48,932 bases of DNA from a virus. The stretch's first letter is position 1. Each line of letters opens with the position of its first letter. The stretch is from UHGV virus genome UHGV-1350838; one strand, 5' to 3'. Shown here in pieces: positions 21,580 through 24,044 of this stretch. The notes beneath the pieces were generated by a model. It did not search any database. It worked only from the letters and a program-made list of their open reading frames with translations, and was not told where the DNA came from. Position numbers and translations under genes: made by a program.

Positions 21580-23157
21580 ATGTTGGAGTTTAGTGTTATT
21601 GAAAGAGGCGGGTATATTCCTGCAGTAGAAAAAAATAAGGCATTCCTACGAGCAGATGGTTGGAATGACTATTCCTTTGTTACAATGTTTTATCTTACTG
21701 TCTTTGATGAGCATGGTGAAAAATGCGATATCGGAAATGTTAAAATTGGTTTTGTAGGTCAAAAAGAAGAAGTAAGCACTTATTCATTAATAGATAAAAA
21801 ATTCAGTCAACTCCCTGAAATGTTTTTTTCCTTAGGTGAAAGCATTGACTACTATGTTAATCTCAGCAAATTAAGCGATGGTTTTAAACATAACCTTCTT
21901 AAAGCTATTCAGGATTTAGTAGTATGGCCAAATCGATTAGCCGACATTGAAAATGAAAGCGTCCTTAACACCTCATTACTTAGAGGGGTAACTCTTTCAG
22001 AAATTCATGGACAGTTCGCACGTGTGTTAAATGGTTTGCCAGAATTGTCAGATTTCCACTTTTCATTTAATAGAAAAAGTGCTCCCGGATTCAGTGATTT
22101 AACTATACCTTTTGAGGTGACGGTTAATTCTATGCCCAGCACGAACATTCATGCTTTTATCGGGCGGAATGGGTGTGGTAAAACAACAATTTTGAATGGA
22201 ATGATTGGTGCAATCACCAACCCAGAAAACAATGAATATTTTTTCTCTGAAAATAATAGACTTATCGAGTCAAGAATCCCAAAGGGATATTTTCGATCGC
22301 TTGTTTCAGTTTCGTTTAGTGCATTTGATCCTTTTACTCCTCCTAAAGAACAACCTGACCCAGCAAAAGGTACACAATACTTTTATATTGGACTCAAGAA
22401 TGCTGCCAGCAATAGTTTAAAATCACTAGGCGATCTCCGCTTAGAATTCATTTCAGCATTTATTGGTTGTATGAGAGTAGATAGAAAAAGACAACTCTGG
22501 CTTGAAGCTATCAAAAAACTAAGTAGTGATGAAAACTTTTCAAATATGGAACTCATCAGCCTCATTTCTAAATATGAAGAGTTAAGACGTAATGAACCAC
22601 AGATTCAAGTGGACGATGATAAATTCACTAAATTGTTTTATGACAATATCCAGAAATATCTGCTTCGAATGAGCTCTGGACATGCAATTGTTTTATTTAC
22701 TATCACAAGATTAGTAGATGTCGTTGGCGAAAAGTCATTAGTTTTATTCGATGAACCAGAGGTTCATCTGCATCCACCTTTGCTCTCTGCTTTTTTACGA
22801 ACATTAAGCGACTTACTCGATGCACGCAATGGTGTAGCAATAATTGCAACTCATTCCCCAGTAGTACTGCAAGAGGTTCCAAAATCCTGCATGTGGAAAG
22901 TCCTACGGTCAAGAGAAGCAATAAATATTATCCGTCCGGATATTGAGACATTCGGTGAGAACTTAGGTGTTTTAACTCGTGAGGTGTTTTTACTTGAAGT
23001 GACAAATTCTGGATACCACCACTTATTATCGCAGTCCGTTGATTCAGAGCTTTCTTATGAAACCATTCTAAAAAATTATAATGGTCAGATAGGATTAGAA
23101 GGTCGAACCGTTTTAAAAGCGATGATAATGAACAGAGATGAAGGTAAAGTACAATGA
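21580..23157 (+). CDS. ea59: Ea59, ABC-like P-loop ATPase
   Basis: 525 aa; Walker A GRNGCGKTT, Walker B LVLFDEPEVHLH. Confidence 0.9.
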   Translation: MLEFSVIERGGYIPAVEKNKAFLRADGWNDYSFVTMFYLTVFDEHGEKCDIGNVKIGFVGQKEEVSTYSLIDKKFSQLPEMFFSLGESIDYYVNLSKLSDGFKHNLLKAIQDLVVWPNRLADIENESVLNTSLLRGVTLSEIHGQFARVLNGLPELSDFHFSFNRKSAPGFSDLTIPFEVTVNSMPSTNIHAFIGRNGCGKTTILNGMIGAITNPENNEYFFSENNRLIESRIPKGYFRSLVSVSFSAFDPFTPPKEQPDPAKGTQYFYIGLKNAASNSLKSLGDLRLEFISAFIGCMRVDRKRQLWLEAIKKLSSDENFSNMELISLISKYEELRRNEPQIQVDDDKFTKLFYDNIQKYLLRMSSGHAIVLFTITRLVDVVGEKSLVLFDEPEVHLHPPLLSAFLRTLSDLLDARNGVAIIATHSPVVLQEVPKSCMWKVLRSREAINIIRPDIETFGENLGVLTREVFLLEVTNSGYHHLLSQSVDSELSYETILKNYNGQIGLEGRTVLKAMIMNRDEGKVQ

Positions 23158-24044
23158 AAAAACTACCTCTTCCAGCGAGAACTTATAGCGAAATGCTTAA
23201 TAAATGCTCGGAAGGTATGATGCAGATAAATGTTAGAAATAATTTCATTACTCACTTCCCCACTTTTTTGCAGAAAGAACAACAATATAGAATATTAAGC
23301 TCGACAGGTCAGTTATTTACCTACGACAGGACACACCCTCTTGAGCCTACAACCTTAGTAGTTGGTAACCTGACAAAGGTTAAATTAGAAAAGCTTTATG
23401 AAAATAATCTCCGAGATAAAAACAAACCCGCTAGAACATATTACGATGACATGCTTGTTTCATCAGGTGAAAAATGTCCATTTTGTGGTGATATAGGACA
23501 GACAAAAAATATAGATCATTTTCTTCCTATTGCACATTATCCTGAATTTTCGGTGATGCCTATTAATTTAGTTCCATCGTGCCGCGACTGCAATATGGGA
23601 GAGAAAGGTCAAGTTTTCGCAGTAGATGAGGTACACCAAGCGATTCATCCCTATATCGACAAGGACATTTTTTTTCGTGAGCAATGGGTATATGCAAATT
23701 TCGTTTCCGGAACTCCGGGTGCTATCAGTTTTTATGTTGAATGCCCGGCGAACTGGAGGCAGGAAGACAAACACAGAGCTCTTCATCATTTCAAGCTATT
23801 AAATATTGCTAACAGGTATCGTTTGGAGGCAGGGAAGCACTTGAGTGAAGTGATTACTCAAAGAAACTCTTTCGTAAAAGTTATAAGGAAATATAGTTCA
23901 ACCGCAACGTTTCAGCAGCTACAGTCAGAATTTATTGAAGCAAATCTGAAACCTATTATAGATTTGAATGACTTCCCCAATTATTGGAAAAGAGTTATGT
24001 ATCAGTGCCTAGCAAACTCGGAAGATTTTTTCAGAGGGATCTAG
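23154..24044 (+). CDS. ea31: Ea31, HNH-type nuclease
   Basis: 296 aa; CPFCGD...DHFLP...NLVPSCRDCN zinc-finger/HNH motifs; start overlaps the ea59 stop (ATGA). Confidence 0.9.
   Translation: MKKLPLPARTYSEMLNKCSEGMMQINVRNNFITHFPTFLQKEQQYRILSSTGQLFTYDRTHPLEPTTLVVGNLTKVKLEKLYENNLRDKNKPARTYYDDMLVSSGEKCPFCGDIGQTKNIDHFLPIAHYPEFSVMPINLVPSCRDCNMGEKGQVFAVDEVHQAIHPYIDKDIFFREQWVYANFVSGTPGAISFYVECPANWRQEDKHRALHHFKLLNIANRYRLEAGKHLSEVITQRNSFVKVIRKYSSTATFQQLQSEFIEANLKPIIDLNDFPNYWKRVMYQCLANSEDFFRGI

Follow-up and report, generated by a model that had tools for sequence, protein, structure and literature searches.

In the Septu system, an oligomer of the ATPase PtuA associates with the nuclease PtuB in a 6:2 complex whose nuclease activity is regulated by nucleotides. 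PtuA oligomers of both Septu and retron-Eco7 clamp PtuB via their C-terminal helices (PMC12819146; PMC13096335), and Septu requires the PtuA Walker motifs as well as the PtuB HNH motif (PMC13096335). In vitro, ATP inhibits the nicking of DNA by stand-alone Septu (PMC12819146; PMC13096335), and tRNA-Tyr is cleaved in vivo upon infection (PMC13096335). PDC-M01, an unpublished candidate system in PADLOC-DB v2, is a bioinformatic candidate, and in Bacillus genomes its calls fall together with those of Septu (PMC11811056). Here we analyzed ea59 and ea31, two adjacent genes of the UHGV virus genome UHGV-1350838 (48,932 nucleotides (nt); this whole stretch is called the window below), which by whole-window alignment is the reverse complement of phage lambda. 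To our knowledge, no biological role has been assigned to these b-region genes of the best-studied temperate phage. The analysis indicated that Ea59 and Ea31 very probably form a Septu-like ATPase-nuclease complex, and we favor, with moderate confidence, the reading that they are the two subunits of a Septu-type, ATP-controlled nuclease that serves competitor exclusion in lambda.

When the two proteins were searched against PADLOC-DB, Ea59 matched the PDC-M01A model PDLC04235 (E = 3.9e-201) over residues 3–521 of its 525 amino acids (aa) and the PtuA-labelled model PDLC00282 (E = 5.4e-184) over residues 4–522, and Ea31 matched the PDC-M01B model PDLC04256 (E = 5.8e-113) over residues 1–294 of its 296 aa. 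Ea59 also matched AAA_21 (1.3e-16) and AAA_15 (8e-13) in Pfam, and the similarity to PtuA, AAA_15, and AAA_21 that the initial annotation, made from the letters of the window, had proposed to look for was recovered throughout. The similarity to PtuB and HNH families proposed for Ea31 was borne out in part: the protein matched PDC-M01B over its full length, but the Pfam search gave no match for it, to HNH families or to others, and it did not reach NCBIfam TIGR02646. Among PHROGs, Ea31 matched PHROG 10378 'HNH endonuclease' (4.9e-152), and the NCBIfam search of the pair gave sub-threshold matches only. When the N-terminal 95 and the C-terminal 136 residues of Ea31 were scanned as fragments, they matched only PDC-M01B among the matches listed, and the best 25 PADLOC families for the fragments were all PDC-M01B or PDC-M62B. 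Profile similarity to defense ATPase and HNH families, whose absence had been named beforehand as a reason to abandon the link with Septu, was decisively present in the PtuA, PDC-M01A, and PDC-M01B matches. These matches carry the link beyond architecture, on which alone the initial annotation had drawn it.

Ea59-Ea31 shared with Septu an arrangement of adjacent, co-directional genes with the ATPase gene 5' of the nuclease gene, and in all 15 non-lambda homologous loci with enough upstream sequence an Ea59 homologue stood directly 5' of an Ea31 homologue. Ea59 belongs to the ABC/OLD-type ATPases (AAA_15/AAA_21) and has both Walker motifs, A and B, intact, and Ea31 is an HNH (beta-beta-alpha-Me) nuclease in which the catalytic His and Asn are present. 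The genomic association of Septu with other defense systems was likewise seen for the Ea59-Ea31 homologues, while lambda's own copy lies in the accessory b region of the phage. Compared with canonical Septu, Ea59 has an extra beta-rich N-terminal domain of about 160 aa and Ea31 an extra helical N-terminal domain of about 95 aa. An hhalign comparison of the Ea31 family with canonical Klebsiella PtuB aligned the HNH core only (60 columns, 40% identity, probability 90%), and the Ea59 family aligned with canonical Klebsiella PtuA over only 74 columns, covering the signature, Walker B, and H-loop. The pair also appears to differ from stand-alone PtuA/PtuB (structures 8EE4 and 8EE7) in that its predicted expression in lambda is confined to the lytic phase. 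No such difference at the sequence level separated the pair from PDC-M01, which both lambda proteins matched over their full length in adjacent genes and which is their family. As judged from these comparisons, Ea59-Ea31 is a member of a sister clade (PDC-M01) within the broad Septu umbrella, and is neither canonical Septu nor a type I-A retron effector. The Septu (PtuA/PtuB) architecture proposed initially gained support from profiles and from homologues in defense islands, but the pair is not canonical PtuA/PtuB.

The PtuAB proteins of type I-A retrons (Retron-Eco7/Ec78 and Ec83) gave the best structural matches of both Ea59 and Ea31 (9kjx, 9e8z, and 9n69) and the best PDB sequence matches of Ea59. 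A retron effector was rejected: there was no reverse transcriptase open reading frame in the 20.5–28.5 kb region of the window, no Rfam retron RNA was found, and Ea59 scored 48 bits against a cut-off of 500 on the NCBIfam PtuA equivalog NF041760. The OLD-family systems (P2 Old, Gabija GajA, and PARIS AriA/AriB) have the ABC ATPase lineage AAA_15/AAA_21 in common with Ea59, and the logic of a sensor ATPase plus a nuclease in common with the pair. AriA and OLD were among the weaker matches of Ea59, and these two were confined to the ATPase core. Whereas the nuclease of the OLD family is a TOPRIM or DUF4435 protein, either fused or separate, that of Ea59-Ea31 is an HNH protein, and PADLOC and Pfam gave no TOPRIM or DUF4435 match in Ea59 or Ea31. 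An earlier association of ea59 with phage resistance is found in Streptomyces lividans, in which a phiHAU3 resistance gene is similar to lambda ea59 according to the 1994 title by Zhou, Deng, Hopwood, and Kieser (cited in PMC2653506). The link between ea59 and phage resistance, as worded in that title, dates from 1994. An Ea59 homologue with 54% identity was named 'phage Hau3 resistance protein', and its gene was followed by an overlapping gene for a 293-aa protein, which resembles an Ea31 homologue by position and size alone. Plasmids of Streptomyces, the host genus of the phiHAU3 resistance gene, commonly carry Ea31-like genes beside AAA ATPases.

In the layout of Ea59, the beta-rich N-terminal domain, which is clade-specific and carries invariant residues of its own, was followed by an ATPase head, into which a helical segment is inserted, and by C-terminal helices. 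Ea31 consisted of the helical N-terminal domain, a zinc-ribbon HNH core, and a helical C-terminal domain. Conservation was examined by aligning 40 homologues of Ea59 and 44 of Ea31, which were 45–92% identical to the lambda proteins. The motif residues were invariant across these homologues (Table 1), which indicated that selection and not chance maintains them. The two Walker motifs of Ea59, the CxxC, DH, and N/CxxC motifs of Ea31, and the 4-bp overlap of the two genes had been recognized in the initial annotation and were located again; the ABC signature and H-loop of Ea59 are additional to them. The Walker B stretch was the part that aligned with solved PtuA chains. Gene calls for the homologues in E. 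coli, Vibrio, Klebsiella, and Pseudomonas showed the identical 4-bp overlap, and this arrangement is consistent with translational coupling of ea59 and ea31. Shine-Dalgarno-like sequences were found 7 nt 5' of the ea59 ATG (AAGGG) and 8 nt 5' of the ea31 ATG (GAAGGT).

Table 1. Features of the ea59-ea31 region, with positions in the window.
Feature	Position	Strand	Description
ea59	21580-23157	+	525 aa; ABC/SMC-type ATPase, PtuA-like (PADLOC PDC-M01A)
ea31	23154-24044	+	296 aa; HNH nuclease, PtuB-like (PADLOC PDC-M01B)
Ea59 Walker A / P-loop	22162-22188	+	GRNGCGKTT, aa 195-203; G195, R196, N197, G198, G200, K201, T202, and T203 invariant in 40 homologues
Ea59 ABC signature	22669-22683	+	MSSGH, aa 364-368; S365, S366, G367, and H368 invariant
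Ea59 Walker B and D-loop region	22738-22779	+	LVLFDEPE, aa 387-394 (nt 22738-22761), catalytic Glu392, then HLHPP; D391, E392, P393, E394, H396, L397, H398, P399, and P400 invariant in 40 homologues
Ea59 H-loop	22846-22860	+	ATHSP, aa 423-427; A423, T424, H425, S426, and P427 invariant
ATGA start/stop overlap	23154-23157	+	ea31 start on ea59 stop; junction GTA CAA TGA / ATG AAA
Ea31 HNH (beta-beta-alpha-Me) core	23475-23594	+	C108xxC111 (CPFC, 108-111), D121-H122, N138, C143xxC146-N147 (CRDC-N, 143-147); core residues invariant in 44 homologues
Hairpin and U-run between attP and ea59	20968-21017	+	on the ea59 strand; -24.3 kcal/mol, z -5.3
attP core	20815-20829	.	TTAGTATAAAAAAGC as read on this strand; NC_001416 annotation 27724-27738
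ea47	24635-25867	+	most AT-rich part of the window, GC 0.32-0.36

The scan for homologous cassettes, in which one genome per species was used, gave 37 loci. Approximately 20 of them consisted of lambda DNA with 100% identity in hosts where it is implausible, and these were discarded. An E. coli homologue followed Lamassu (LmuA/LmuB) in an integrase/AlpA island. The Vibrio parahaemolyticus homologue adjoined HerA-DUF4297 in a small element with an integrase and DUF3987, found at two chromosomal sites, and this element looks like a mobile, satellite-like defense island; a second integrase was present in two of its four loci (L041–L044). In Klebsiella, the homologue was located in a CP4-57-like integrative island with genes for Septu, a type IV restriction endonuclease-like HNH protein, WYL, anti-restriction, and CbeA. 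The Septu system of this island consisted of a 717-aa PtuA (PDLC00288, 1e-283) and a 302-aa PtuB (PDLC00328, 4e-113), and it lay about 4 kb from the lambda-type pair (1583–4647 and 8427–10891 in L045–L048), whose HNH gene was 92% identical to Ea31. The coexistence of canonical Septu and an Ea59-Ea31 homologue in one island suggests that neither of the two ATPase-HNH clades makes the other redundant. In Pseudomonas mendocina, the cassette was a bare two-gene insertion with a guanine-plus-cytosine (GC) content of 0.38 between flanks of 0.67.

The cassette had a GC content of about 37% irrespective of the host, and in the window GC was 0.37 across 21–25 kb compared with 0.50 for the entire window. 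The attP core lay about 750 bp upstream of ea59; an AT-rich accessory region adjoining attP, as described in the initial annotation, was evident. No int homologue was found at the non-lambda cassette loci examined. The genes upstream of the cassette in E. coli, Klebsiella, and Vibrio were unrelated to each other and to the window, which ruled out a conserved upstream gene or its decayed remnant in the 840-bp attP-ea59 spacer. A three-gene system including ea47 was also ruled out, since ea47 had no homologue at any of 17 homologous loci and gave no PADLOC, Pfam, or NCBIfam match. Because the upstream genes differ between loci, the module comprises exactly two genes. Ninety-one plasmids, from Streptomyces, Clostridium, Rhizobium, and Bacillus among others, carried distant full-length Ea31 homologues (26–39% identity). 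Most of the plasmid records that were examined annotate an AAA family ATPase beside the homologue, and the Bacillus and Streptomyces plasmid homologues fell in PDC-M01 models. In a HMMER scan of 1.84 billion representatives, the family comprised 495 clusters (50% identity) at E<=1e-30, and 2179 when the threshold was relaxed to E<=1e-10. This AT-rich two-gene module is horizontally mobile and is found in bacterial defense islands, and that of lambda is an accessory cassette beside attP.

The lambda copy itself was present in 91 of 5426 complete E. coli genomes, mostly laboratory K-12 lysogens, and was at least 99% identical in all of them. It was identical in the independent isolates HK629 and HK630. 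Strains of the BL21(DE3) type kept only the first 870 bp of ea59, and in ATCC BAA-196 an IS2 element was inserted in the cassette; both are natural or engineered knock-outs. Lambda DNA with 100% identity also occurred in assemblies of Streptomyces, Oceanobacillus, Bradyrhizobium, Fusobacterium, Bacillus, and others, frequently on contigs about 48 kb long with low coverage. The same DNA is also recorded under the name 'Campylobacter phage CJLB-4' and, for Salmonella, Stenotrophomonas, and Paenibacillus, as 'plasmids' of 48.5 kb. These occurrences in unrelated records are almost certainly contamination with control DNA.

In the vegetative genome, the cassette is located 3' of int in the leftward pL unit, and in the prophage recombination at attP parts ea59-ea31 from int and pL. 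Between attP and ea59 there was a strong hairpin with a U-run on the ea59 strand (Table 1), which is the tI terminator/sib region of lambda and which would stop transcription that is not N-antiterminated short of ea59. No sigma-70-like site was found between this hairpin and the ATG of ea59, and promoter-like matches in the region were below the expectation from shuffled sequences; a sigma-70 promoter belonging to ea59 itself was therefore rejected. The position of the pair 3' of tI and the lack of its own promoter suggested that Ea59 and Ea31 are probably made only from N-antiterminated pL transcripts, in lytic growth or upon induction. Ea59 and Ea31 have historically been called 'early' proteins, which is consistent with pL expression. 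Probable expression in the lytic phase only suggests exclusion of co-infecting or superinfecting competitors over classical protection of the lysogen.

Several points weigh against a defensive role of the pair in lambda. A lysogen microarray flagged ea47 as expressed and not ea59 or ea31 (PMC1151598), a result that also fits synthesis in lytic growth or upon induction, and with the lysogen cassette cut off from pL and situated behind tI, this makes classical prophage defense doubtful. Among 50,697 phage records, the cassette was found only in lambda and near-identical relatives, plus two uncultured contigs, and it is not a general lambdoid feature. A CRISPR interference (CRISPRi) survey classified ea59, ea31, and ea47 as non-essential (PMC10695390), a result that agrees with the dispensability of the region asserted in the initial annotation. 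In the table of that survey, knock-down of ea59 gave efficiency of plating values of 13 and 17, the highest among the neighboring non-essential genes (PMC10695390); these values may simply reflect noise, or else Ea59 may limit the plating of lambda to a small extent. Furthermore, no paper on ea59 or ea31 that also mentions Septu, PtuA, or PtuB was found in the literature searched. Taken together, the distribution in phage records and E. coli genomes and the contexts of the bacterial homologues indicated that the lambda copy is an isolated acquisition of a bacterial defense-island cassette.

The same body of evidence bears on other explanations of the pair. An endonuclease of lambda described in 1982 was reportedly ATP-dependent. 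This lambda-encoded enzyme, purified by Benchimol, Lucko, and Becker, was single-stranded-DNA-dependent according to its citation in PMC5241400, and an annotation table carries 'ATP-dependent endonuclease' as an older, RefSeq-derived name of ea59 (PMC10695390). Both records, together with the place of the cassette in the leftward early unit 3' of int without its own promoter, would suit a nuclease that serves the phage, an early pL product made with Exo, Bet, and Gam that processes or degrades host, plasmid, or replication-intermediate DNA to the advantage of lambda itself, for example in recombination, nucleotide supply, or counter-defense. We nevertheless regard such a function as unlikely, since the homologues occurred overwhelmingly in bacterial chromosomes, islands, and plasmids without phage genes and beside known defense systems, and since the cassette was absent from the other lambdoid phages among the records searched. 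In addition, knock-down of the non-essential genes caused no loss of plating (PMC10695390), and lambda is stated to leave host DNA undegraded (PMC5241400). The dispensability of the genes (PMC10695390) would instead fit a selfish or vestigial passenger, that is, a mobile module beside attP that benefits neither phage nor host, either as an addiction or toxin-like element or as silent cargo. Its foreign GC content, alike in every host, its rarity and near-identity in mostly laboratory lysogens of E. coli, and the IS2-interrupted and DE3-truncated copies, which occur with no obvious harm, point in the same direction. Against this stood the intact state of both genes with all catalytic residues preserved, the identity of the lambda copy in HK629 and HK630, and the hundreds of clusters that keep full length and gene pairing under purifying selection, so that a mere passenger also seems improbable.

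A further explanation, prompted by some automatically assigned names, takes Ea59 for an ordinary ABC-transporter ATPase or for the 'AbiEii toxin' found in type IV toxin-antitoxin systems, and Ea31 for an unrelated, homing-type HNH endonuclease. Ea59 did give weak P-loop matches to ABC_tran and to many transporter models of NCBIfam, one phage record describes it as 'putative transporter, ABC binding cassette-like', and the Pfam description of AAA_21 mentions AbiEii. However, the transporter matches were far below the curated cut-offs (e.g., 22 versus 441 bits), there was no membrane partner, and the HNH gene was an obligatory partner at every locus examined and was not associated with homing sites. 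The best full-length matches were PtuA/PDC-M01A and PDC-M01B. The PADLOC matches, the NCBIfam scores, and the conserved HNH pairing effectively refuted this explanation, to which we give hardly any credence. A Septu-type nuclease directed at competitors is the reading that we prefer, and its action in inter-phage or mobile-element conflict in the biology of lambda has, in our estimate, a slightly better than even chance of being correct.

On the basis of the observed homology, motifs, conserved pairing, defense-island context, and foreign base composition, we infer how the complex could form, how ATP might gate it, and what its substrate, trigger, and defense benefit might be. In the proposed mechanism, Ea59 and Ea31 would be made stoichiometrically from the overlapping, translationally coupled genes. 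Ea59, which is ABC/SMC-like and PtuA-like, would act as sensor and scaffold, and the PtuB-like HNH protein Ea31 as effector. By analogy with the PtuAB proteins of Septu and retron-Eco7, Ea59 oligomers would hold Ea31 with their C-terminal helices. The HNH site would become competent for nucleic-acid cleavage when some trigger acts together with the binding or hydrolysis of nucleotide at the intact ATPase motifs (Walker A, Walker B, signature, and H-loop). Cleavage, either of DNA, as in the biochemistry of 1982, or of tRNA, as in Septu, would stop a competing phage or mobile element. A more specific version, which we put forward tentatively and consider rather doubtful, is that the PDC-M01 clade is mechanistically distinct from Septu: its clade-specific N-terminal domains would serve as sensors of a nucleic-acid cue, for instance single-stranded DNA, the HNH nuclease would be activated and not inhibited by ATP, and lambda would deploy the pair from pL in lytic growth only, against co-infecting phages, satellites, or plasmids. 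The pair would then be a defense system borne by a phage and used in lytic growth instead of by the lysogen.

The apparent lytic-only expression of ea59-ea31 raises the question of whether phage modules can act against competitors in lytic growth rather than in protection of the lysogen. The placement in a Septu-like family turns a lambda endonuclease that has been a curiosity for 40 years into a directly testable hypothesis in a phage for which genetics, mutants, and phage panels already exist. The pair would also give PDC-M01, with its hundreds of clusters in Proteobacteria, Firmicutes, and Actinobacteria, a tractable model member. As an annotation the pair is not new: public hidden Markov model libraries already match both proteins end to end, and RefSeq names the products 'AAA family ATPase' (ea59) and 'HNH endonuclease' (ea31). 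The novelty implied by the initial annotation is weaker in view of these database models and names and of the papers of 1982 and 1994, and the gain is incremental, as defense systems borne by prophages are common and the homology was already implicit in public databases.

Outside the cassette, ea47 matched only PHROG 19262, of unknown function. On the minus strand at 26039–26100, in the region of the tail-fiber-assembly gene, part of an IS009 element was matched in Rfam (58.7 bits, E = 7.5e-12), and the match was cut off by the end of the searched stretch. Along 20700–26000, the window matched the reverse strand of phage lambda J02459/NC_001416 with 100% identity. Over the whole window, the alignment gave four substitutions (lambda positions 45352, 43082, 37742, and 37589) and an added C at 14266, which are the markers of commercial lambda cI857 ind1 Sam7 DNA. 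There were also apparent assembly artifacts, in which lambda 5748–6004 and 3120–3426 were repeated and lambda 1–182 was missing (window junctions at about 42805 and 45689), and positions 1–54 of the window were a stray 54-nt piece corresponding to lambda 48264–48317 in the forward orientation. These changes and artifacts leave the ea59-ea31 finding untouched.

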